Assembly (NCBI GenBank): GCA_018000835.1
Contig: JAGNJD010000001.1
Location: 5,275-69,274, forward strand
Reading direction: 5' to 3'
DNA from: Candidatus Goldiibacteriota bacterium
Lineage (GTDB): Bacteria > Oederibacteriota > PGYV01 > DSYL01
Length of the DNA stretch: 64,000 nt
Shown: in pieces, positions 7,376 through 42,482 of the stretch
How positions within the stretch are numbered: position 1 is the first letter of the stretch
Layout of the letters: every line of letters begins with the position of its first letter
The notes under the pieces: generated by a model
Told to the model about the DNA's origin: nothing
The model's database searches: none
Seen by the model: only the letters and a program-made list of their open reading frames with translations
Translations under genes and position numbers: made by a program

Positions 7376-7858
7376 CTATTTTGTTTTATCGTTTTTTATC
7401 ATTCCGTAAATTCTCGCGTCGTTATGGTCAAAAACCAGGACAATCAGTCCCATTATCAGCAGGATTACGTCTCTTATTATAGTCGTAATGCCTATTGTTT
7501 CTTCCGGAAACAAAAAGTCAAAGCATCCGCAGGAAATTTCTATCCCGCGATGAACATCAATTGCAATCGCAAAAATAAAAGCAATAAGCAGTCCGCAGAT
7601 AATGAGAGAATTGCTTTTTGGATAAATGTCAAGAAACAATAAAAGTCCTGCAAAAAATTCAATCCACGGAACAATGGAAGCAAACAAAGGGACGACAGCA
7701 TTTGGAAGCAGGACGTAGGAATAAACGTCCTTTGCAAACTGCTGCGGATCAATTATCTTGCCGATGCTTGCAACGACGAATACAAATCCAAGGCAGATTT
7801 TTAAAACGTAAAGCAGCCATTTATTTGACAAAAACTTTTTTATAGTATTCATGTTCAC
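7376..7858 (-). CDS. MauE/DoxX-family membrane protein
   Basis: 160 aa with four TM segments and an SCGCFD motif like the MauE CGCFG motif. Confidence 0.6.
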   Translation of the reverse strand: MNMNTIKKFLSNKWLLYVLKICLGFVFVVASIGKIIDPQQFAKDVYSYVLLPNAVVPLFASIVPWIEFFAGLLLFLDIYPKSNSLIICGLLIAFIFAIAIDVHRGIEISCGCFDFLFPEETIGITTIIRDVILLIMGLIVLVFDHNDARIYGMIKNDKTK

Positions 7859-8934
7859 CTGCTTTGTGTCGTCGTCTGTTGTGGTGCCCTGTATAAGTTA
7901 TATCCTGCTTTTTCCCATTGCTGCAATCCTTCAATAAATATTAAAATTTTTTTATATCCTTCCTTATACAGCATGTTTGCAGCCTGCTTTGCTTTACCGC
8001 CGCGTCCGTGACAATAAATTACGCTGGGTTTTTGTTTTAAAAAATAATCGTAACCGCGTATCATGTCTTTTAATTTGTCAACCGGGATTGTAACCGCCCT
8101 GTCGATGTGTATCTTGTTATAGTTTTCCTGCGTATCAACGTCAATGAAATTTGCAAGCCCGCTATCGTATAAAAATTTTGCTTCTTCCAGTGTTATCTGC
8201 TTTATTTCTTTTTCAGAAGGCGCTTCCATAAATAAGGATTTAAATTGCTCCGGCGGCTCGTATTTTTCAACCGGCATGTTTGCCTGCGTCCATTCCGGCC
8301 ATCCGCCAAAGTAAATTACGATCTTTTTATATCCTGCATCAAACAAAGCATAAGCAACCTTATCTGACAGGTGACATCCTGCACCATGACAATATGGAAC
8401 AAGAACCTTATCCTGCAAAATGTCTTTGTATTGCGGAATCTTATTCTGCACGTCTCCAACCGGCATGCTTAATGCGCCCGGTATATGTCCATCGTTATAT
8501 TCGCCGGTGCTTCTGGCATCTATAAATACCGCCTTACCGCTTTCAAACAAAACTTTTGCTTCCTCAAGATGTATTTTTGGAAAATCTTCCTTTTTCTTTC
8601 TTTCGTCAAATAAATATTTATATTTTAAAGGAATATGATAAACTTTCGTCGGAACCGGAGCAGGTGCCTGTAACTGCTGCCCTTCCAAAACAGACGTTAT
8701 GGTATTTGAAACAACGTCCGCAGTCGTTGATGCTGCAGCCGGTTGTCCTGCTTCTTTATCTGCTCCTACCGACGCTCTTATACCCGTATATGAAAGTGCC
8801 GTGACTGTCGCAACTACCAAAACCACGACTGCTTTTAAAACAACGTTATACGCCTCTTTTAAAAAACCTGATTCTTTTACCTGTTTTTTTACAATCTTTT
8901 TTGTAACCTTATTTGCTTTTTTCTTTCTTACCAT
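7855..8934 (-). CDS. Tandem rhodanese-domain sulfurtransferase, membrane-anchored
   Basis: Two rhodanese active-site loops, CHGAGCHLS and CHGRGGKAKQ, and an N-terminal TM anchor. It is adjacent to the MauE/DoxX gene. Confidence 0.7.
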   Translation of the reverse strand: MVRKKKANKVTKKIVKKQVKESGFLKEAYNVVLKAVVVLVVATVTALSYTGIRASVGADKEAGQPAAASTTADVVSNTITSVLEGQQLQAPAPVPTKVYHIPLKYKYLFDERKKKEDFPKIHLEEAKVLFESGKAVFIDARSTGEYNDGHIPGALSMPVGDVQNKIPQYKDILQDKVLVPYCHGAGCHLSDKVAYALFDAGYKKIVIYFGGWPEWTQANMPVEKYEPPEQFKSLFMEAPSEKEIKQITLEEAKFLYDSGLANFIDVDTQENYNKIHIDRAVTIPVDKLKDMIRGYDYFLKQKPSVIYCHGRGGKAKQAANMLYKEGYKKILIFIEGLQQWEKAGYNLYRAPQQTTTQSR

Positions 8935-32504: not shown

Positions 32505-33500
32505 TTATATTTTCCCGACCGGTATTATATAAGCAATCATAAAAAATATTATGCCCCAGAGCAGGAATATCCAGTAATTTTCTTCATATCTCGTTTCTTT
32601 TTTTATTTTTGCCCTGTTTGCTTCCATTTCCTTTATGTCGTCCAAAATTTTGTTAAAAACGTTTATGTCCGTTGCCCTGTAATATTTTCCATCCGTAATT
32701 CCTGCTATTTGTTTTAATACAGTTTCGTTAAGACGTGATACGACGTATTCACCCTTATACGTTTTATAATAAGTCCTTCCCCAGACGTCGGTTCCCTCCG
32801 GTATCATTCCTCCTTTTTCCGTTCCGACACCGACCGCATAAATTCTTATATTTTTTTCTTTTGCAATTTTTGCCGCATCAAGAGGGGACATCCCTTCCAG
32901 TGATTCACCGTCGGTTATCAGTATTATTGCCCTTGATTTTTCTGCTTTTTCTTCCATACGTTCAACTGCAGATTTTATTGCATTTCCAAGTGCAGTTCCC
33001 TCTTTTGACAGCATCCCTGCATAAATTGAATCTATGATAAAACTGACTGCCTCATAATCAAGCGTGAGAGGGCACTGGACAAAATCTATACCGCTGAAAA
33101 CGATTATTCCAACCCTGTCTCCGGATAAATTTGCAACAAAATTATTTAATCCCTTTTTAACGACTTCTATCCTGTTTGGTTTCATATCTACTGCATTCAT
33201 TGACGATGAAACGTCCATAACTATCATGATGTCCCTTCCTGAATATTTTTGCTCGCTTTCTATGGGCTTTCCAAGCGGCCTTGCCGCAGCAATGATGAAC
33301 AAAACAAACGACGTCAAAATCAGCGAGTATCTTACAATTATTGCAGTAAAAGAAACTTTATGAAAAACCTTGTCCTGCAAATTTACGTCAAAAAATTTAT
33401 TAAAATTACGGAATGAAGAATATATCCTGTAACATAGATATAAAAATACCGGTATCAAAAGAATTAATAATTTTAATGCATCCTTATTATAAAAATTCAA
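32505..33500 (-). CDS. VWA-domain protein (BatB-like)
   Basis: N-terminal TM, then a VWA domain with MIDAS motif DVSSSM. Confidence 0.7.
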   Translation of the reverse strand: MNFYNKDALKLLILLIPVFLYLCYRIYSSFRNFNKFFDVNLQDKVFHKVSFTAIIVRYSLILTSFVLFIIAAARPLGKPIESEQKYSGRDIMIVMDVSSSMNAVDMKPNRIEVVKKGLNNFVANLSGDRVGIIVFSGIDFVQCPLTLDYEAVSFIIDSIYAGMLSKEGTALGNAIKSAVERMEEKAEKSRAIILITDGESLEGMSPLDAAKIAKEKNIRIYAVGVGTEKGGMIPEGTDVWGRTYYKTYKGEYVVSRLNETVLKQIAGITDGKYYRATDINVFNKILDDIKEMEANRAKIKKETRYEENYWIFLLWGIIFFMIAYIIPVGKI

Positions 33501-33544
33501 AATTTCCTCCTGAATTTTCTGCAGTTACTAAAAATGAATTTTTT

Positions 33545-34555
33545 TTATACAAATACCCTGAAAAATTTAAAAACCTCAAGAAACAAATCAATAAGCAGAA
33601 TGATAAGGCCGATCCACAAAAATGTCTGAAACCTGTCGATATACCTGTTATATGTTTTTATTTTTATGTTCTGTTTTTCCAGTTTCCCTATCATTTCGTA
33701 AATCTCTTTTAATGCTTTTTCATCCGTTGCCCTGAAATATCTGCCGCCCGTCATGTTTGCAATCTGCGTAAGAGTTTTTTCGTCGGGCTCCTCCCATTTT
33801 AACTGTTGTCCCGTATACCTGTCTATAACCGGCCTTTTAACTCCATCCCATCCGAGTTGCATCATGGGTGCACCGCCTTTTTTACCGATGCCGATAGTAT
33901 ATATTTTTATCCCCTTATGAATGGCCGCCTGTGCTGCTTCTATCGGAGAAAAACCGCGGTTATTTACACCGTCCGTAGTAAGGATAATTACACGTGACGG
34001 GCCTGAATTTTCAAGACGGTTTATTGAAGTAATGATGGCATCTCCCATCGCAGTTCCATCTATTCTTATTGTCTGAAAATCTATCTGGTCAATGAAACTT
34101 TTTATGATTTCGTAATCCGTGGTTAAAGGGCACTGAAAAAAACTTGTCCCTGCAAAAACTACGAGTCCTACCCTGTCTCCAGAAAGTCCGGAAACGAATT
34201 TTCTTATTACTTCCTTTGCTGCCTCCAGTCTGTTCGGTTTTAAATCCTCTGCCTGCATGCTGCCCGATATGTCAAGCGCAACTATGATGTCTATGCCTTT
34301 TATGTCTTCCTGCGTTTCTTTTTGTATTTTTTGTGGTCGTAAAAGTGCTATTATCAGAAAAACAAGACCCGCGACTTTTAAAAAATCGAGAACGTAAATT
34401 ACGATGGTGTTGTATCCGGAAGACGTTTTTTGTAAAATAAAAAAGTTGGAAAATCTGAATTTCCTTAATTTTACGTAATTATAAATCAGGGATATAAGAA
34501 AAATCAGTCCAAGAATTAAAATCGGTAAAAGTAAATTCCTGTTTGCAAATCTCAT
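33545..34555 (-). CDS. VWA-domain protein (BatA-like)
   Basis: N-terminal TM, then a VWA domain with MIDAS motif DISGSM. Confidence 0.7.
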   Translation of the reverse strand: MRFANRNLLLPILILGLIFLISLIYNYVKLRKFRFSNFFILQKTSSGYNTIVIYVLDFLKVAGLVFLIIALLRPQKIQKETQEDIKGIDIIVALDISGSMQAEDLKPNRLEAAKEVIRKFVSGLSGDRVGLVVFAGTSFFQCPLTTDYEIIKSFIDQIDFQTIRIDGTAMGDAIITSINRLENSGPSRVIILTTDGVNNRGFSPIEAAQAAIHKGIKIYTIGIGKKGGAPMMQLGWDGVKRPVIDRYTGQQLKWEEPDEKTLTQIANMTGGRYFRATDEKALKEIYEMIGKLEKQNIKIKTYNRYIDRFQTFLWIGLIILLIDLFLEVFKFFRVFV

Positions 34556-35442
34556 TTTGCCAGTCTCCGTTCACGCATTCTGAAAAAAGACATGAGTTTC
34601 TTATAAAAAGGTTGCCCGCAGTAAAGTTTCATAAAATCAACTCCTGCTGATTTAAACTGTTTCTCAAGTTTATTGTCAAATGCTTCACTTGTCTTCCTGA
34701 ATTTTTCCATGACCTTTTTGTTTGATGTATCAATCCACACGACTTTGTCATTTTCAGCGTCGTAAAAAGGTATAAATCCTATGTCTGGAATGTTAAAATC
34801 CGCATCGTCACGCAAAATTACGGCAATAACGTCATGTTTATGTTTTAAAATTTTAACGGCTTCAAAAAAATCCTTTGGATCGTAAAAATCCGAAATGATA
34901 AATATAGTTGAGCGTTTCTTTAAAAGATGGCTTAAATATTTTAAGCCCGCTGCAATGTCCGTTCCAGATTCCCTTTGCCTATGATATAAAATTTCCCTTA
35001 TTATCCGCAATACGTGCTTTTTCCCTTTTTTTGGCGGTATGTATTTTTCTATTGACGATGAAAAACCGAGATATCCAACCCTGTCATTGTTGATGTTTGC
35101 CGTGAAACCAAGCGTTGCAATAAATTCAAACATGAGTTCCTTTTTAAGATTCGTTTTCGTGCCAAAATCCAGGGAACCGCTTAAATCAGTGGCAAAAAAA
35201 ACCTGCAATTCCCTTTCTTCTATAAACGTCTTTACGTAAGGCACGTTCATCCGTGCAGTTACGTTCCAGTCAATGGACCTTATGTCATCGCCTTCCACGT
35301 ATTCCCTGACCTCTGTGAATTCCACGCCTCTCCCTTTAAAAGAGGAAAGATACTCTCCCTGAAGCACGGTATCAACGAGATTACGGGTGGTTATTTCTAT
35401 TTTTTTTATTTTCTTTAATATATCTTTTGATATTACCTGCAT
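34552..35442 (-). CDS. DUF58-family protein
   Basis: FKGRGVEFTEVREYVEGDDIRSIDWNVTAR is the conserved DUF58 core. Its position between moxR and the VWA genes matches the Bat operon pattern. Confidence 0.7.
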   Translation of the reverse strand: MQVISKDILKKIKKIEITTRNLVDTVLQGEYLSSFKGRGVEFTEVREYVEGDDIRSIDWNVTARMNVPYVKTFIEERELQVFFATDLSGSLDFGTKTNLKKELMFEFIATLGFTANINNDRVGYLGFSSSIEKYIPPKKGKKHVLRIIREILYHRQRESGTDIAAGLKYLSHLLKKRSTIFIISDFYDPKDFFEAVKILKHKHDVIAVILRDDADFNIPDIGFIPFYDAENDKVVWIDTSNKKVMEKFRKTSEAFDNKLEKQFKSAGVDFMKLYCGQPFYKKLMSFFRMRERRLAK

Positions 35443-36425
35443 TACGGGACCTTTATCTTGTTTATTATCTGATTTATTACGTCGTCAGTGGATATTTCTT
35501 CTGCTTCTGCTTCGTATGAAAGTATTAATCTGTGTCTTAAAATGTTATGTGCCATGATTTTTACGTCGTCAGGAGAAACGTATCCATGTCCATTGATAAA
35601 GGCATTTGCTTTTGCTGAAGTTATTAAACTTATGGACGCCCTGGGTGAACACCCGTATTCTATAAGATGAGAAATGTCAATCTTGTAATCCTGAGGTTTT
35701 CTTGTTGCATAAACTATGTCGGTAACGTATTCTTTTATTTTTTCGTCAACATAAATATTGTCGACGATGGAGCGCATATCCATTATATCCTTCGGTTTTA
35801 AAATCGTGTCAACTTCTATTTCTTCTCCGGTTGTCATCCTGTTTATTATTTCTATTTCCTGGTTTTTATCAGGATAAGTAATTAAAACTTTCATCAGGAA
35901 TCTGTCTACCTGTGCTTCCGGCAGGGGGTACGTTCCTTCTGTTTCTATCGGGTTTTGAGTGGCAAGAACTATAAACGGTTCTTCAAGATTAAACGTTTTT
36001 TCCCCTATGGTTACCTGTTTTTCCTGCATGGCTTCGAGAAGGGCCGACTGGACTTTTGCAGGAGCCCTGTTTATCTCGTCCGCAAGAACTATATTTGCAA
36101 AAATAGGCCCAGTTGATATTGAAAAATTTCCTGTGTTCGCATTATATATCCGTGTTCCAATCAAATCTGCAGGCAAAAGGTCGGGAGTAAACTGTATGCG
36201 TGAAAATTTTGACTGAATGGTTTTTGAAAGGACTTTTACGCACATCGTTTTTGCAAGCCCCGGAACACCTTCCAGTAATATGTGTCCCCTGCATAAAAGT
36301 CCTATAAGCAAACCCTTTATCATTTCTTCCTGTCCTACTATTACTTTCTGCACTTCTTTTACAGTCTCTGTAAGTTTCTCGGATTTTTCCATTTCTTTTT
36401 CAGATAATTTTACGATTTTGGCCAT
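35442..36425 (-). CDS. MoxR-family AAA+ ATPase
   Basis: GHILLEGVPGLAKT Walker A, DEINRAP Walker B, and typical MoxR length. Confidence 0.85.
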   Translation of the reverse strand: MAKIVKLSEKEMEKSEKLTETVKEVQKVIVGQEEMIKGLLIGLLCRGHILLEGVPGLAKTMCVKVLSKTIQSKFSRIQFTPDLLPADLIGTRIYNANTGNFSISTGPIFANIVLADEINRAPAKVQSALLEAMQEKQVTIGEKTFNLEEPFIVLATQNPIETEGTYPLPEAQVDRFLMKVLITYPDKNQEIEIINRMTTGEEIEVDTILKPKDIMDMRSIVDNIYVDEKIKEYVTDIVYATRKPQDYKIDISHLIEYGCSPRASISLITSAKANAFINGHGYVSPDDVKIMAHNILRHRLILSYEAEAEEISTDDVINQIINKIKVP

Positions 36426-36804: not shown

Positions 36805-37560
36805 TTACTCTATTATTACCATAGTGCCTTCCATGACGTAATTGCTCAATTCAAGTATGTCTTCGTTTTTCATTCTTATGCAGCCGGCCGACGCCTCATG
36901 TCCGAGTGCATCCTCGTCGTTTGTGCCGTGTATTGCAATGCCGTCTCCCGGGTCTTTAAAATACAGGTTCTGGTCTCTTTTAATAATGCCGTCGTCAAGT
37001 GCATCGTTATACCTTTTGTAATCATCGTCATTGGGATAATCAAGCAGCATAAATACAGGACCATAAGAATTATATCCGAGAGATTCTCCTGTTTTAAATT
37101 TTTTATGACCATCCTCTGAACGCAGATAAGTTTTGTTTAACTGTTCCAGTTTTCCCCTGTTTTTTATATATTTTTCTTTAAGTGCATCATAATATTTTTT
37201 GTAAATTTCATAATTTTCTGAATTTCTGTCCATATTTTCCATTTTTTCTCTTAACTTTTTCAGATACCATGGTTCGTTATACTGGTAAATTTCATCTATA
37301 TAATAAACACCTTCCGGAGTTTTCATGTCGTTACGGAATAATTTTTGTCCCTGTTTTTTTCCGGTTGAAATTATGTATCGTCGCCATACTTTCATGTCGC
37401 TATCTATTAAATATAACATTTTCTGAGATTTATTAATATAAATAAAATACGTTTTTTTATAATTTTTTAAAAGGACGCTTAATTTCTTATTGCTAAAGGA
37501 ATTTACGTTTTGAACAAAAAAAATACAGATTATTAAAAAAACAAATATCGTCTTTTTCAT
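36805..37560 (-). CDS. L,D-transpeptidase (YkuD domain), secreted
   Basis: Signal peptide. The C-terminal GIAIHGTNDEDALGHEASAGCIRM is the L,D-transpeptidase catalytic motif. Confidence 0.7.
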   Translation of the reverse strand: MKKTIFVFLIICIFFVQNVNSFSNKKLSVLLKNYKKTYFIYINKSQKMLYLIDSDMKVWRRYIISTGKKQGQKLFRNDMKTPEGVYYIDEIYQYNEPWYLKKLREKMENMDRNSENYEIYKKYYDALKEKYIKNRGKLEQLNKTYLRSEDGHKKFKTGESLGYNSYGPVFMLLDYPNDDDYKRYNDALDDGIIKRDQNLYFKDPGDGIAIHGTNDEDALGHEASAGCIRMKNEDILELSNYVMEGTMVIIE

Positions 37561-38591
37561 TAATCAAGCGTATTTATCGTTAAATCCGGCGTTTCAATTA
37601 TCCTAAATTCAACGTTTGCTTCTTTGAACAAATCCTCGTATGATTTATCCGGATAATATTTTGAAACTATTACTTTTTTTATTTTTGCATTTACTATCAT
37701 TTTTGCACACAATATGCACGGGGAATGCGTGCAATATAAAGCCGCTTTCTCCGTCGTTGCACCGTGCAATGCTGCCTGTATTATTGCATTTTGCTCCGCA
37801 TGTATGGCACGGCATACTTCATGTCTCGTTCCGGACGTAATGCCCATCTGGTCGCGTAGACATCCGAGTTCCAGACAATCCGTAACTCCTGATGCGGCAC
37901 CATTATAACCCGTTGATATTACGTAATTGTCTTTTACGATTACCGCGCCTATATGATGTCTTATGCACGTTGAACGTTCGGCTACAAGATAAGCCATTTT
38001 CATAAAATATTCATCCCACGCAGGCCTTTTATATGGTTTATAACCAAAATTTTTTAATACGTCTTCAAGTTTTTTATGGAGTTCCTCAACGGTTCCTGAA
38101 TTGTCAATTTTTACGTCTGCCATTTCAAAGCACTTTAATAATTGCTGGCCTGTTTGTGCTTTTGAATTTTCTTTTTGCTCATTTGCAATAAATTCCTCGT
38201 AGGACATCCGATTTTCGTTTTCGCGTCCCCTTTTTCCTGCTCTTTCATATCTTACTTTTGTATCTGCATTGATGCCTATCAGTTTAAAATCTTTTAAATT
38301 TTTTCTGAGTTCTTCTATTTCGGACGGATTCCTGATTGAATCAACGATCGCCTGTGGCATATTTTTTATTTTTTCAACGGCAAGTTTTGCAAGAACTCCC
38401 GGGCCATGCTTTTCCCGCAGTTCATTACCAACGGAAATTAAATTATCCCTGTTTATTTCAACGCCCCTTGATTTTAATTCAGAACGTAAGATATCAGATA
38501 AGGAATAAGAAACAAATTTATGTTTTTCAACCAGATATTTTATTGCCTCTCCTTTTCCCGATGCATTTGGTCCGGTAAATCCCAGAAACAT
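37560..38591 (-). CDS. Two-domain P-loop nucleotide-kinase-like / dCMP (cytidine) deaminase fusion protein (AvcD/DCD-like architecture)
   Basis: 343 aa. N-terminal Walker-A GFTGPNASGKGEA plus a ~170-aa kinase-like region. The C-terminal zinc deaminase has HAEQNAI and CTHSPCILCAKMI (HAE...PCxxC) motifs. Confidence 0.65.
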   Translation of the reverse strand: MFLGFTGPNASGKGEAIKYLVEKHKFVSYSLSDILRSELKSRGVEINRDNLISVGNELREKHGPGVLAKLAVEKIKNMPQAIVDSIRNPSEIEELRKNLKDFKLIGINADTKVRYERAGKRGRENENRMSYEEFIANEQKENSKAQTGQQLLKCFEMADVKIDNSGTVEELHKKLEDVLKNFGYKPYKRPAWDEYFMKMAYLVAERSTCIRHHIGAVIVKDNYVISTGYNGAASGVTDCLELGCLRDQMGITSGTRHEVCRAIHAEQNAIIQAALHGATTEKAALYCTHSPCILCAKMIVNAKIKKVIVSKYYPDKSYEDLFKEANVEFRIIETPDLTINTLD

Positions 38592-38665
38592 TTTTCACCT
38601 GCCTTTATTTTTTTATAATTATATATAATTATCATTTTTTTTCAACAAATTATATTTAATTTCAG

Positions 38666-39943
38666 TTAAATAATGATCTCCGGGTTCAAAAAGAATTCCT
38701 CAGCTTCAAAGGATTTAAATTCCGGCATCTTTACTATTTTCTTATACGTAATTACTATTTTATCCGTTTTTTCATATCTTTTTGAAAAAATTTTGAGCGC
38801 AGATGCAGCCTTGCCAGGATTTCCGGACTTTACTTCAATTGCTTTGAGTTTGTTACCTATTTTAAAAACATAATCAACCTCATTATCCCTTTCACGCCAA
38901 TAGAACAATTCTCCTCCGTATTCCTGTGCTAACCAGTAAAGCCTTGCCCCAACTGCATTCTCTATCAGCCTTCCCCAATACATAGAATCCTTAAATGTCT
39001 GCCTGTAGTTAACATTTGAATTAGCCGTGACAATTGAATTATCCAAAAAAAGAATTTTCGGAGATGAACTTTTCTGTCTGATTCTGCTTCCGCTGAATTT
39101 CTCAAGGGGTATGATAAAAAAAGCATTGGAAAGAAGTTTCAGGTAAAATGCTATCGTAGATGCATTGCCCGCTTCCTGGAGTTGACCAAGCATGTTCTGG
39201 TAACTTAATATCTGTGCAGGATAGTGAAGGCACAAGGCAAATGCCTGTCTTAACAGCGCCGGTTTTGTTATTGGATTCATTAAAAGCACGTCTTTGGCTA
39301 TTACCGCTTCAACGAGAGAATCTTTTATATAATCCATCCATCTGTGATAATCCTTGCGAATTTGCAGTGCCGCAGGATAACCACCGTAATAAATGTATTC
39401 ATTTAATTTTATGCCGGCAAATTCACTGCATTCTTTAAATGACCATTGGCTGTGCCTGTGCAGTTCAAACCTTCCGGCAAGGCTCTCTGTCAATCCCCTT
39501 TGCATCAAAAGCGAAGAGGAACCAAGTATGACTACGCGAAGATTTATTCTGGAAAATTTATCCTCATCAAACAGCCGTTTTACTATGGTACTCCAATGTG
39601 ATATTTTCTGTATTTCATCAATGATAAGAAGTGTCCTTTTTCGTTCTTTTTTTGCCGCTTCTCTTGCTTTGTTCCATACTCTCATAAGCCATTGGGTGTC
39701 GACAACTTCCGGCAAATCCGCCGTCTCATAAAACTTTGGTCCTTTCCATTCATTAAATATCTGCTTTACAAGAGTCGTCTTGCCAACCTGACGAGGTCCT
39801 ACCACCGCCTGGATGAGATTTACGTTCCCCTCCAGATGCTTTTTAAGCCTCGTATAAAGCTGTTTTCTAATATATATTTTCATGGTCATAAGATAACAAA
39901 TTATCTGCGCCAAGTCAAACAATTTGTTCAATTGATTGAACAA
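38666..39943 (-). CDS. AAA_14/DUF4143 ATPase
   Basis: GPRQVGKTTL Walker A. The C-terminal DUF4143-like region is typical of this widespread accessory ATPase family. The likely start is MKIYIRK at ~39883. Confidence 0.7.
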   Translation of the reverse strand: MFNQLNKLFDLAQIICYLMTMKIYIRKQLYTRLKKHLEGNVNLIQAVVGPRQVGKTTLVKQIFNEWKGPKFYETADLPEVVDTQWLMRVWNKAREAAKKERKRTLLIIDEIQKISHWSTIVKRLFDEDKFSRINLRVVILGSSSLLMQRGLTESLAGRFELHRHSQWSFKECSEFAGIKLNEYIYYGGYPAALQIRKDYHRWMDYIKDSLVEAVIAKDVLLMNPITKPALLRQAFALCLHYPAQILSYQNMLGQLQEAGNASTIAFYLKLLSNAFFIIPLEKFSGSRIRQKSSSPKILFLDNSIVTANSNVNYRQTFKDSMYWGRLIENAVGARLYWLAQEYGGELFYWRERDNEVDYVFKIGNKLKAIEVKSGNPGKAASALKIFSKRYEKTDKIVITYKKIVKMPEFKSFEAEEFFLNPEIII

Positions 39944-40089
39944 ATTGTAAATTCAAATTTGGTTTTATTGCTTTAATTGCCCCATATTCCGTTGCTTTAC
40001 GGTAAATCTGATGGAAAAATTAATTGCAGCTACATGAATTTTTTATGATTAAAAACGAGTAATTGAATGCTGCAGGATTTTTTTAAAAT

Positions 40090-41142
40090 TTAAATTATTT
40101 TTTTTAGTTCTTTTAAAAATTCTTTTAACAAATCTTTTTTCTTTACCTTTTTAATTATTTTACCTTTTTTAAAAATCACGCCTATTGATTTGCTGCCGGT
40201 TAAACCAAGGTCTGCATGAGATGCCTCTCCAGGGCCATTTACGCTGCACCCCATAACTGCAATCTTTAACGGCTTTGATATGTTCATTGTTGCTTTTTCA
40301 ACTTCATGGGCAATTTTTATGACGTCTATTTCGGTTCTCGCACAGGTTGGACAGGAAATTATCGTAACTCCTCTTTCACGTAATCTGAGAGAATTAAGAA
40401 TCCTGTATGCAACGTATACTTCCATTTCCGGTTTTGTGGTTAACGAAACCCTTATTGTATCGCCAATCCCTTCTGATAAAAGAATACCGGAACCTATGGA
40501 TGATTTTATGACACCACCTAATTCAGTCCCGGATTCCGTTATGCCTATATGCAAAGGATAATCCCTCATTTTAATAAAAAGACGATATGCTTCTATCGTA
40601 GTAAGCACGTCCGACGCCTTAAGCGAGATAACCATATTTGTAAAATTTTCACCTTCAAAAAATTCAACGTATTCCATTAAACTTGCAACCATAAGATTTG
40701 CAGTATCATCTTCTGATTTTACTTTAAGTTTATAGTTGATGTTGGATTTAAGTGAACCTGAATTTACTCCTATTCTTATTACTGCTTCCCTTTCTTTTGC
40801 AGCATTAATTACTTCCCTTAACCGGTCAACGCCCCCTATGTTTCCAGGATTTATTCTTATTTTATCTACCCCGTTTTTTAATGCCTCAATGGCAAGGCGG
40901 TAATCGTAATGAATGTCTGCAACAAGTGGAATTTTTATCTGTTCTTTTATTTTCTTTAACGACAATGCCGACTGTATATCAGGCACGCTGCATCTTATAA
41001 TCTCACAACCTGCATCCTCTAATCTTTTTATTTGGGCAACGGTTGATTTAACGTCTTTTGTTTCGGTATTGGTCATTGACTGCACAGCAATGGGATTGCC
41101 GCTGCCTATGGTAACGCTGCCTATTTTTACCTTTTTCGTCAT
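40090..41142 (-). CDS. ispG: 4-hydroxy-3-methylbut-2-enyl diphosphate synthase (flavodoxin)
   Basis: KIGSVTIGSGNPIAVQSMTNT and CPTCAR...MGCSVNGPGE motifs. The track ORF starts at 41280, but the likely start is MTKKVKIG at ~41142, just after the rseP stop. Confidence 0.9.
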   Translation of the reverse strand: MTKKVKIGSVTIGSGNPIAVQSMTNTETKDVKSTVAQIKRLEDAGCEIIRCSVPDIQSALSLKKIKEQIKIPLVADIHYDYRLAIEALKNGVDKIRINPGNIGGVDRLREVINAAKEREAVIRIGVNSGSLKSNINYKLKVKSEDDTANLMVASLMEYVEFFEGENFTNMVISLKASDVLTTIEAYRLFIKMRDYPLHIGITESGTELGGVIKSSIGSGILLSEGIGDTIRVSLTTKPEMEVYVAYRILNSLRLRERGVTIISCPTCARTEIDVIKIAHEVEKATMNISKPLKIAVMGCSVNGPGEASHADLGLTGSKSIGVIFKKGKIIKKVKKKDLLKEFLKELKKII

Positions 41143-41150
41143 ATTATGCT

Positions 41151-42482
41151 TTAACTTCCTGAAAAGAATCTTAAAATGTCCTGATAGGTTGCAAATATCA
41201 GAAGAAATATCAAAAGCATCCAGCCAAGTTGCATTAATGTTTCCTGGACTTTTAACGGAACCATTTTTCCTCGTATCCATTCAATTATGAATATAAGCAC
41301 AAGACCGCCGTCAAGCGGTAAAAGCGGCACAAAATTAATCAATGCAAGGTTTATGTTTATAATTGCAAATAAAAACATTAGATTCACTATGCCTGTTTTT
41401 GCAACTTCATAACTTATCTGTATGACGCCGATAGGACCTGCAACGTCCGGTTCTATTTTTCTCATGATCATTTTATAAATTGACCTTACTGTAAGGTCTG
41501 TAAAATTAACTACCTGTGCAAAAGCCCGGTCCGATGCTTTTAATATGCCATATTTCTCTTTTGTTGAATTTGGTTTTGGCACTATTCCTATTACTTTTCT
41601 TTTTATCTTTGTTTTATCCTTTGCTTCTTCCTCTACGATTTTTGGAGTAATTACAAATTCTTTTATTTCCCCGTTTCTTTGGACTTTTATTTTTAAATCT
41701 TTCTTTGATTTCTCCACCATATCCGTAACTTCTTCCCAGTAGGTAATTTTTTTACCGTCTATACTTATGATAACGTCGCCTTTTTTTATTCCCGCATTAT
41801 ACGCAGGAAATTCTTTTTTAACGTCATCTACTATCGGTAAAAAAGCAAGCGGAGAAATTCCAACCACCGGTTTTTTCTTTTTATCCTTTAAAATGTCCTC
41901 TGTTTCCTCTATTTTTGGTTTAATGTTAAAAACAAGTTCTTTGTTATCCCGCAAAACAACAAAAGTTATCTGCTCTTCTTTTAAGCCTGTTATAATTTCA
42001 GAAACTTCATTCCAGTATTTTACTCTTTTGTCATTAATCTTTATTATCTCGTCTCCCTTTTGCAAGCCGGCTTCGAATGCAGGATATCCATGCTTAACTT
42101 CGCCAATTACCGGCTTTAGCGTATCAGTGCCTATAATAAATACAAACCACATGAGAAGGAAAGCAAGGAATATATTTTGTATCACCCCGGAGGAAGCCAC
42201 AATAATCTTTTTTATCGGATGCTGGTTTAAAAAAGCTTTTTTATCGTTTGGGTCAAGTTCGTCGGGATTTTCTCCTGCCAGCTGCACGTATCCTCCTAAG
42301 ACCACCAGTAAACTTATTAAATATTCAGTTTCTCCTTTTTTAAATGAAACCAGTTTTGGACCAAGTCCTATTGAAAATTTTTCAACGCCTATATTTAAAC
42401 TTTTAGCGGCAAAAAAATGTCCCATTTCATGAAATAGTATCGTAAGACCAAGCGCTATGATTATGTAAAGTGCTTCCAGCAT
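41151..42482 (-). CDS. rseP: RIP site-2 metalloprotease RseP
   Basis: HEMGHF zinc motif, two PDZ domains, and a C-terminal LDGG motif. Confidence 0.85.
   Translation of the reverse strand: MLEALYIIIALGLTILFHEMGHFFAAKSLNIGVEKFSIGLGPKLVSFKKGETEYLISLLVVLGGYVQLAGENPDELDPNDKKAFLNQHPIKKIIVASSGVIQNIFLAFLLMWFVFIIGTDTLKPVIGEVKHGYPAFEAGLQKGDEIIKINDKRVKYWNEVSEIITGLKEEQITFVVLRDNKELVFNIKPKIEETEDILKDKKKKPVVGISPLAFLPIVDDVKKEFPAYNAGIKKGDVIISIDGKKITYWEEVTDMVEKSKKDLKIKVQRNGEIKEFVITPKIVEEEAKDKTKIKRKVIGIVPKPNSTKEKYGILKASDRAFAQVVNFTDLTVRSIYKMIMRKIEPDVAGPIGVIQISYEVAKTGIVNLMFLFAIININLALINFVPLLPLDGGLVLIFIIEWIRGKMVPLKVQETLMQLGWMLLIFLLIFATYQDILRFFSGS

Follow-up and report, generated by a model that had tools for sequence, protein, structure and literature searches.

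The 64,000-nucleotide stretch of contig JAGNJD010000001.1 from a Candidatus Goldiibacteriota bacterium that is analysed here (the window) carries a gene for a protein of 343 amino acids (aa) in which a nucleoside monophosphate (NMP)-kinase-like domain is fused to a zinc deaminase domain for deoxycytidine monophosphate (dCMP). An earlier note on this DNA had assigned the fusion protein to the AvcD/DCD class of anti-phage deoxycytidine triphosphate (dCTP) deaminases and had read its surroundings as an inserted defence islet. The fusion gene is probably neither a defence gene nor an insertion, but part of the vertically inherited core, with a housekeeping role in deoxypyrimidine metabolism. Comparison of its relatives has shown kinase and deaminase domains that are evolutionarily locked together and repeatedly linked to thymidylate and ribonucleotide reductase genes. 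The anti-phage dCTP deaminases share this pair of domains and are larger, remotely related proteins.

The two domains and their anti-phage relatives

The open reading frame (ORF) is far beyond chance. A Candidatus Goldbacteria metagenome-assembled genome (MAG) encodes the very same protein on a contig of 212,751 bp (P0001, 100% identity), and the homologues number more than 1,900, with lengths of 339-343 aa for most of the top matches. The protein carries the motifs GFTGPNASGKGEA (residues 4-16), HAEQNAI (264-270) and CTHSPCILCAKMI (287-299). In Pfam, AAA_17 matches residues 6-128 (45 bits, cutoff 27), AAA_18 is matched as well, and dCMP_cyt_deam_1 covers residues 191-310 (90.9 bits, cutoff 25). 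The ORF and these matches bear out the earlier description of a 343-aa protein with a Walker-A kinase-like domain and a complete zinc dCMP-deaminase domain. An AF2 model has a mean predicted local distance difference test score (pLDDT) of 92.1 and a predicted template modelling score (pTM) of 0.66, a combination that leaves the relative placement of the two domains in the model undefined.

The C-terminal 158 residues have the fold, the HAE motif and the PCxxC motif of the ComEB/DCTD dCMP deaminases (PF00383). These enzymes convert dCMP to deoxyuridine monophosphate (dUMP) under allosteric control by dCTP and thymidine triphosphate (dTTP). In a PDB sequence search, the domain matches the S. mutans dCMP deaminase 2hvv (E 1.2e-25) and also 1vq2 (the T4 enzyme Cd), 4p9c and 2w4l (human DCTD), and Foldseek places it on the S. 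mutans dCMP deaminase 2hvw with a target-normalised template modelling (TM) score of 0.91. It is 53-67% identical to single-domain dCMP deaminases of about 160 aa from many phyla, including Firmicutes, Desulfobacterales, Thermoleophilia, Dehalococcoidia, Elusimicrobia and archaea, among others. The identity is 58.6% to the single-domain enzyme of Anaerobacterium chartisolvens and 67% to a deaminase encoded in the split form described below. With bona fide anti-phage dCTP deaminases the identity is about 25-31%, and it is 31-37% in partial, gapped alignments with two such proteins. The cutoff of the ComEB model TIGR02571 (219) is uninformative here because a plain single-domain clostridial enzyme (133) falls below it just as the fusion protein does (130). 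The bifunctional dCMP/dCTP deaminase of the chlorovirus PBCV-1 (7fh4) and vertebrate CDADC1 (9hfq) belong to the same superfamily and accept deoxycytidine nucleotides other than dCMP as well; they lack a kinase-like domain and are much weaker PDB matches (E 2e-8 and 2e-6). Characterised dCMP deaminases are likewise without a kinase-like part, whereas the fusion protein has an NMP-kinase-like domain of about 185 aa covalently joined to the deaminase.

The N-terminal domain is nucleotide-kinase-like, as the earlier note held, with support from structure comparison and an invariant Walker A motif, and it is not degenerate. Its best Foldseek match is 3lw7, an adenylate-kinase-related protein with adenosine monophosphate (TM 0.87, target-normalised), followed by 3h0k (0.84-0.85) and then by AK5, UMP/CMP kinases and dephospho-CoA kinases. 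The PDB sequence search points in the same direction, to the SSO1041/AdkA-like protein of S. solfataricus (E 5e-13). The domain is thus like the archaeal UPF0200 proteins (SSO1041, 3h0k/3lw7; PRK08356) in both sequence and fold, but it scores under the family cutoff, and UPF0200 proteins are not reported as deaminase partners. Among the NCBIfam models, PRK08356 is the best non-deaminase match of the fusion protein at 68.8 bits (cutoff 189), a stand-alone kinase of the split form scores 87 bits on it, and the adenylate and UMP-CMP kinase models give E values of 5e-5 to 8e-3, far under their cutoffs. When the N-terminal domain is searched by itself, many stand-alone homologues of about 180 aa are found at 45-55% identity.

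Residue conservation was read from an alignment of 58 fused homologues (A2). In the kinase half, G4, G7, G12, K13, R59, R87, R114 and R121 are invariant, and R36, R117 and R123 are kept in at least 90% of the proteins. The deaminase motif residues listed in Table 1 are invariant too. Because the motif residues of both kinase and deaminase are invariant, both halves look catalytically competent. An alignment of the N-terminal domain with an approximate sequence of E. coli Adk placed the P-loop and R36 convincingly, was unreliable beyond them, and is not used as evidence.

The anti-phage AvcD/DCD proteins have the same order of domains, an N-terminal P-loop kinase-like domain followed by a C-terminal zinc deaminase. 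In BLASTP, residues 1-332 of the fusion protein align with two anti-phage members colinearly over both domains, at 25-26% identity and with 21-22% gaps, and among the blocks conserved in the kinase half are VDSIRNPSEIEELR, which aligns with VDQLKHQDEIELLR, and a GQQ motif. The homology to the anti-phage enzymes is real but remote. The architecture and the colinear homology behind the earlier assignment to the AvcD/DCD class hold up, but membership in the class does not, as seen from profile scores and size.

The curated equivalog model for anti-phage dCTP deaminases, NCBIfam NF041025, has a cutoff of 400 bits, and the fusion protein scores 163.1 on it. By comparison, an annotated anti-phage enzyme of a Klebsiella ColE1-type plasmid (551 aa) reaches 478.7 bits and an annotated deoxycytidylate deaminase of an E. 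coli IncI1 plasmid (499 aa) 498.0. The plain single-domain enzyme of A. chartisolvens reaches 113.5 bits, a homologue of the fusion protein encoded beside thyX 152.3, and the stand-alone kinase-like protein and the adjacent deaminase of a split form 60 and 81. On the PADLOC dCTPase model, the fusion protein scores 225 bits (E=7e-67), the two plasmid proteins 545 and 601, the single-domain deaminase 143, and the two split-form proteins 89 and 105. It follows from these controls that the score of the fusion protein is about the sum of a generic kinase-like score and a generic ComEB score. The comparison of AvcD/DCD with ComEB profiles that the earlier note had proposed went against membership on NF041025 and gave no information on TIGR02571.

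Size and layout differ as well. Tal et al. describe an E. coli dCTP deaminase of 576 aa (10.1101/2021.04.26.441389), and AvcD/DcdV of V. cholerae has 532 aa, with the 174-nt inhibitory RNA AvcI/DifV encoded immediately 5' of it (10.1101/2021.03.31.437871). The fusion protein is indeed shorter than these, as the earlier note had said, and shorter than all the AvcD/DCD members compared here, which have 499-576 aa. Tal et al. required kinase and deaminase matches, a size of more than 350 aa and a defence score above 0.33 for their defensive family (10.1101/2021.04.26.441389), and 343 aa misses that size. The members are extended at both ends, by about 35 aa at the N terminus and about 100 aa at the C terminus, their kinase half holds inserts, and in their deaminase about 60-70 aa are inserted between NG and HAE; the fusion protein has none of these additions. 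The P-loop differs too, being a canonical GxxxxGK in the fusion protein and a non-canonical GxCGAxGSGxK in the two aligned anti-phage proteins.

AvcD is encoded next to its inhibitory small RNA (sRNA), whereas at the fusion locus no upstream sRNA locus, defence island or presence/absence polymorphism was found. A 174-nt RNA of the AvcI type was considered for the upstream gap and rejected, as the gap is only 74 nt long (38592-38665) and is taken up by a promoter and ribosome-binding-site (RBS) block kept in relatives. The earlier estimate of about 75 bp without an AvcI-like region was accurate. There is no Rfam match at the gathering threshold in the whole window, although AvcI may not be an Rfam family. 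In all, the fusion protein and its gene fail five testable features of the AvcD/DCD class, namely the NF041025 cutoff, size, defence neighbours, sporadic presence and a 5' sRNA.

Gene order around the fusion gene

In the window, the fusion gene is followed by ykuD and a moxR-DUF58-batA-batB operon, and it is preceded by a gene for an ATPase with a DUF4143 domain and, further upstream, by ispG, rseP, dxr and cdsA (Table 1). The DUF4143, ispG and moxR neighbours are thus as the earlier note gave them, according to the ORF list and Pfam. The stop codon TAA of the fusion gene shares one base with the ATG of ykuD (TAATG), and the two genes are translationally coupled.

The two closest relatives, with proteins that are 85% (P0003, locus L103) and 84% (P0005, locus L104) identical, have the order dxr-rseP-ispG-[fusion gene]-ykuD-moxR-DUF58-batA-batB, with no DUF4143 gene and with gaps of 114 and 76 nt between ispG and the fusion gene. 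Since these relatives share the gene order of the window minus the DUF4143 gene alone, it is the fusion gene that is fixed and the DUF4143 gene that was inserted. More distant loci at 68-73% identity (L001, L003, L004, L081-L094 and L098) keep the row from the fusion gene to batB, and in all of these loci, L103 and L104 included, the fusion gene and ykuD overlap or are a few nucleotides apart. What lies upstream varies among the distant relatives, with HicAB and a Na/Ca exchanger in some and a radical-SAM gene or a zinc ABC transporter in others.

The fusion gene is also one of the best-conserved in this block. In L103 its identity is 85% against 70-88% for the neighbours, and in the distant relatives it is 68-73% against 40-53% for YkuD, 55-68% for DUF58 and 70-80% for MoxR. 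Sporadic presence was not seen, as every relative recovered, at identities between 85% and 68%, has the fusion gene in this syntenic place. The gene is accordingly an old, fixed and strongly constrained member of the ykuD-moxR block. The idea of an inserted defence islet does not survive this comparison, in which only the DUF4143 gene is polymorphic, and such syntenic conservation in the relatives is what the earlier note itself had named as a ground for rejecting its proposal. The GC content of 0.28-0.41 over 37-39 kb is inside the range of the flanks and is uninformative on recent acquisition.

The short gap upstream of the fusion gene has a promoter-like site and a Shine-Dalgarno-like sequence. 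L103 and L104 also have the block from TTGAAAAA through the ATG of the fusion gene, placed right after ispG, and this promoter/RBS block is therefore common to the window and both closest relatives. The TTGAAA-16-TATAAT site is the putative promoter of the fusion gene itself.

None of the 104 fetched loci, the two closest relatives among them, has the DUF4143 gene, which is a recent single-gene insertion between ispG and the fusion gene. As the truly variable gene at this site, it is a more plausible candidate than the fusion gene for a role in defence or as an accessory gene. A search around the insertion for signatures of a mobile element gave short AT-rich repeats only, possibly due to chance. 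For example, a 14-nt imperfect direct repeat, TTCAACAAATTATA / TTGAACAAATTGTA, is present at both ends of the insert (38641-38654 and 39936-39949), which in AT-rich DNA could arise by chance.

A few further observations concern the genes nearby. A perfect 14+14-nt palindrome, ACAATTTGTTCAAT/ATTGAACAAATTGT, at 39919-39948 lies across the TTG that the ORF list gives as the start of the DUF4143 gene and may be an operator; the true start of that gene is probably downstream because the PADLOC match begins at residue 26. In L081-L088, where the fusion protein is 70% identical, a HicB/HicA pair (about 7467-7915) lies immediately upstream of the fusion gene, in the place where the window has the DUF4143 gene, and accessory genes may have landed repeatedly in the intergenic site before the fusion gene. 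The ispG ORF of the window has 396 aa compared to 349 aa in the called genes of relatives; its start is probably the internal methionine of MTKKVKIG..., in which case the spacer between rseP and ispG is longer than the ORF list implies. Finally, a gene for a deoxynucleotide enzyme heads the envelope-related block ykuD-moxR-DUF58-batA-batB in relatives down to 68% identity, for a reason that is unexplained.

Table 1. Positions of the fusion gene, its parts and its neighbours in the window
Feature	Position	Strand	Basis or remark
Kinase-like/dCMP-deaminase fusion gene	37560..38591	(-)	ORF list; 343 aa; stop codon 37560-37562
NMP-kinase-like domain, residues 1-185	38037..38591	(-)	Pfam AAA_17/AAA_18, PDB sequence match, Foldseek
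Walker A/P-loop codons, G7-P-N-A-S-G12-K13-G14	38550..38573	(-)	Canonical GxxxxGK
Zinc dCMP-deaminase domain, residues 186-343	37563..38036	(-)	Pfam dCMP_cyt_deam_1, PDB and Foldseek matches
Catalytic H264-A265-E266 codons (zinc-ligand His, proton-shuttle Glu)	37794..37802	(-)	Invariant in alignment A2
P291-C292-x-x-C295 codons (two zinc-ligand cysteines)	37707..37721	(-)	P291, C292 and C295 invariant in alignment A2
Promoter-like site TTGAAA-16 nt-TATAAT (38645-38618) and Shine-Dalgarno-like GGCAGGTG (38603-38596)	38596..38645	(-)	Consensus scan, 11/12 matches
ykuD (L,D-transpeptidase), downstream	36805..37560	(-)	Start overlaps stop of fusion gene
moxR-DUF58-batA-batB, after ykuD	32505-36425	(-)	Bat/aerotolerance-type MoxR-VWA operon
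AAA_14+DUF4143 ATPase gene	38666-39943; insertion boundaries about 38650 and 40089	(-)	Pfam; PADLOC candidate PDC-S01, E=1.5e-144
ispG	40090-41280	(-)	ORF list, 396 aa

Fused and split forms across phyla

The 80 best species-level genome loci were sorted by reading frame. The two domains are fused in 11 of them, from Goldbacteria-like lineages, Spirochaetota, DPANN archaea and Thaumarchaeota, and the deaminase is alone in 53. The remaining 16 have a split form, in which a kinase-like gene of about 180 aa adjoins a deaminase gene of about 160 aa. The kinase-like gene is directly upstream in 15 of these 16 loci and usually overlaps the deaminase gene by 4-32 nt; the 15 come from Omnitrophota, Elusimicrobia, Planctomycetia, Dehalococcoidia, Glassbacteria, Gemmatimonadales, Gammaproteobacteria, Nanoarchaeia and Woesearchaeota, and the remaining one (L043, Saccharibacteria) has the pair in reversed order. 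The pairing is also found when starting from the kinase, as three out of three stand-alone kinase homologues that were chosen by N-domain similarity alone are directly followed by a dCMP deaminase gene. The kinase-like gene is obligatorily adjacent to the deaminase gene in other phyla, unlike the situation in characterised dCMP deaminases. The fusion is the joined form of a two-gene operon in which a kinase-like gene overlaps a comEB-type deaminase gene. The statement in the earlier note that housekeeping dCMP deaminases are single-domain is too general, since a two-domain or two-gene module of kinase and deaminase is common in many uncultivated phyla.

Near these homologues there are thyA, thyX, tmk and nrd genes, which fits a supplier of dUMP. 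As an example, a fused form that is 65% identical (L097, on a 1.9-Mb contig) has thyX 23 nt downstream and carB upstream. Another fused form, on an archaeal contig (P0096), adjoins thyA-tmk-nrdR-nrdD-nrdG-thioredoxin, and in an archaeon with separate genes (L102) a ribonucleotide reductase gene is followed by the kinase-like gene and then by the deaminase gene. A wider survey took in 24 further fused or split loci with three genes on either side (119 neighbours, simple ORF calling). The recurrent Pfam families included ATP-cone (6), NrdD (5), radical-SAM/Fer4_12 (5), Tmk (3), ThyA (2), NrdR (2) and thioredoxin (2). A rough test for defence genes among the same 119 neighbours (PADLOC, E<=1e-10) did not show enrichment, the yield being essentially one restriction-modification locus. 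The sole recurrent PADLOC match was a weak similarity to pVip in five proteins, which are presumably NrdG-type activases because the radical-SAM/Fer4_12 neighbours also number five. In the window, the sole neighbour of a defence type is the DUF4143 gene (PDC-S01), which the relatives lack. Taken together, the surroundings of the homologues appear to be those of an enzyme for the supply of dUMP and thymidine monophosphate (dTMP), and not those of a defence gene.

Two observations from these loci are worth recording in their own right. The ThyX (Thy1) gene of L097 (9052-10545) encodes 497 aa, which is about twice the usual length of ThyX and suggests a tandem duplication or fusion. The most frequent neighbour family in the survey is PilZ (9 of 119). 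In L100 and L101, and also in L015, L018 and L023, all Omnitrophota-like, the split pair shares a conserved gene row with several small genes for PilZ-domain proteins, two for M48 peptidases, and DUF362 ferredoxin-like, DUF4416 and tRNA-binding-domain genes.

A proposed branch-point enzyme and its alternatives

As a housekeeping enzyme, the fusion protein would act at the dCMP branch point. The deaminase half would provide thymidylate synthase (ThyA or ThyX) with its substrate dUMP, made from dCMP, and the kinase half would most likely perform a reversible phosphotransfer on a deoxycytidine nucleotide (dCMP + ATP <-> dCDP + ADP). In this way, dCMP would be drawn from the reductase-derived pool of deoxycytidine diphosphate (dCDP) and dCTP, or from salvage, and would then be committed to dUMP and dTMP. 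The catalysis by the kinase half, its substrate and its direction are inferred, and the substrate is less certain than the housekeeping reading as such. The fallback of the earlier note, a lineage-specific salvage enzyme, comes close to this reading.

Several points weigh against the housekeeping reading. In the window, the fusion gene is not beside thyA, thyX or reductase genes, and its operon partners ykuD, moxR and bat are functionally unrelated. No paralogue of either domain and no thyX is found elsewhere within the 64-kb window, and from a view of this size it cannot be shown that the enzyme is the sole route to dUMP. A kinase and a deaminase that compete for dCMP in one polypeptide are not obviously productive, which makes the direction of flux speculative. 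The family is patchy across phyla and domains of life at fairly high identity, such as 73% to a protein from a MAG labelled Methylomirabilis (L001) and fused forms in DPANN archaea, implying horizontal transfer over long time scales or mis-binning; the taxon labels of MAG contigs, that of L001 for one, may reflect such mis-binning. A literature search found no paper on the short kinase-dCMP-deaminase family or on such fusions outside defence, and none on UPF0200, SSO1041 or PRK08356 kinases. The same search turned up no paper on an AvcD structure. Moreover, depletion of dCTP and dCMP by AvcD/DcdV and by the E. coli dCTP deaminase depends on an intact P-loop, and phosphotransfer has not been demonstrated for either (10.1101/2021.04.26.441389, 10.1101/2021.03.31.437871). 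Since AvcD requires its kinase-like domain to deaminate these nucleotides, the one in the fusion protein may do something other than phosphotransfer.

This last point leads to the possibility that the protein is a housekeeping enzyme with a P-loop domain that is not a kinase but a nucleotide-binding module. The enzyme could deaminate dCTP or dCDP directly, as a chromosomal "bifunctional dCMP/dCTP deaminase" in lineages with reductases that make dCTP, or the domain could be an allosteric sensor of dCTP, dTTP and ATP that sets the balance of dC to dT. The frequent linkage of the homologues to the class III reductase NrdD, an enzyme that makes deoxynucleoside triphosphates, is in keeping with the idea, and so is the undefined domain arrangement in the AF2 model. 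A full GxxxxGK with at least four invariant arginines is typical of active NMP kinases, however, the nearest structures of the domain are kinases that bind nucleoside monophosphates, and the free-standing form of about 180 aa fits an enzyme better than a regulatory appendage. A module without kinase activity is for these reasons doubtful, though not far-fetched.

Far less can be said for a compact AvcD/DCD-class enzyme that shares an islet with the DUF4143 ATPase and depletes deoxycytidine nucleotides when a phage shuts off transcription. The two-domain architecture, the colinear homology to annotated anti-phage enzymes and the strong PADLOC dCTPase match speak for it, as do the adjoining PADLOC candidate defence gene PDC-S01 and the HicAB toxin-antitoxin pair just upstream in another lineage. 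The fusion gene is nevertheless at the same site in all sampled relatives and the DUF4143 gene in none of them, making the adjacency recent and incidental. The protein scores more than 230 bits under the curated NF041025 cutoff, is smaller than the size limit, and is missing the terminal extensions and the deaminase insert. The upstream gap, with its conserved promoter and RBS, has no room for an AvcI-type RNA, the neighbourhoods of the homologues are metabolic, and the gene is coupled to ykuD. An anti-phage enzyme in the strict sense is thus very improbable. A constitutive housekeeping dCMP deaminase that also limits phage, as an ancestral state of AvcD-type systems, is only slightly easier to credit and remains improbable. 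In its favour, each domain has a homologous counterpart in the defence family, and Tal et al. raise a like possibility for distant dGTPase homologues outside defence islands (10.1101/2021.04.26.441389). Nothing at the locus suggests a sensor of infection or an inhibitor, though, and a housekeeping role alone fully explains the strong conservation and the metabolic linkage.

Within the housekeeping reading, a tentative proposal can be made about the origin of the defence family. The short module may be a branch-point enzyme, with a kinase half that interconverts dCMP and dCDP or handles dCTP, and also the stock from which AvcD was recruited; in the strongest form of this proposal, the module would still restrict phage by lowering deoxycytidine pools. 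The architecture of kinase plus deaminase is itself not new, having been noted by Hsueh et al. in Archaea (Thaumarchaeota) and Eukaryota (10.1101/2021.03.31.437871). What appears to be undescribed is the short housekeeping form of about 340 aa, its split equivalents, and their linkage to thymidylate and reductase genes.

The finding matters for the way in which defence genes are counted. PADLOC and similar defence hidden Markov models would mislabel the short fusion family as dCTP deaminases, and surveys that tally defence systems in Goldbacteria, Omnitrophota, DPANN archaea and other such groups would over-count them unless length, curated cutoffs and gene context are checked. It also draws attention to a widespread pairing of a small NMP-kinase-like protein with a dCMP deaminase, with its more than 1,900 fused and split homologues, which is biochemically unstudied. 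This pairing may explain how dCMP is supplied from reductase products in lineages that rely on a dCMP deaminase. As a likely housekeeping relative of AvcD, the fusion protein is a starting point for learning what the kinase-like domain contributes to the defence enzymes and where their family comes from.

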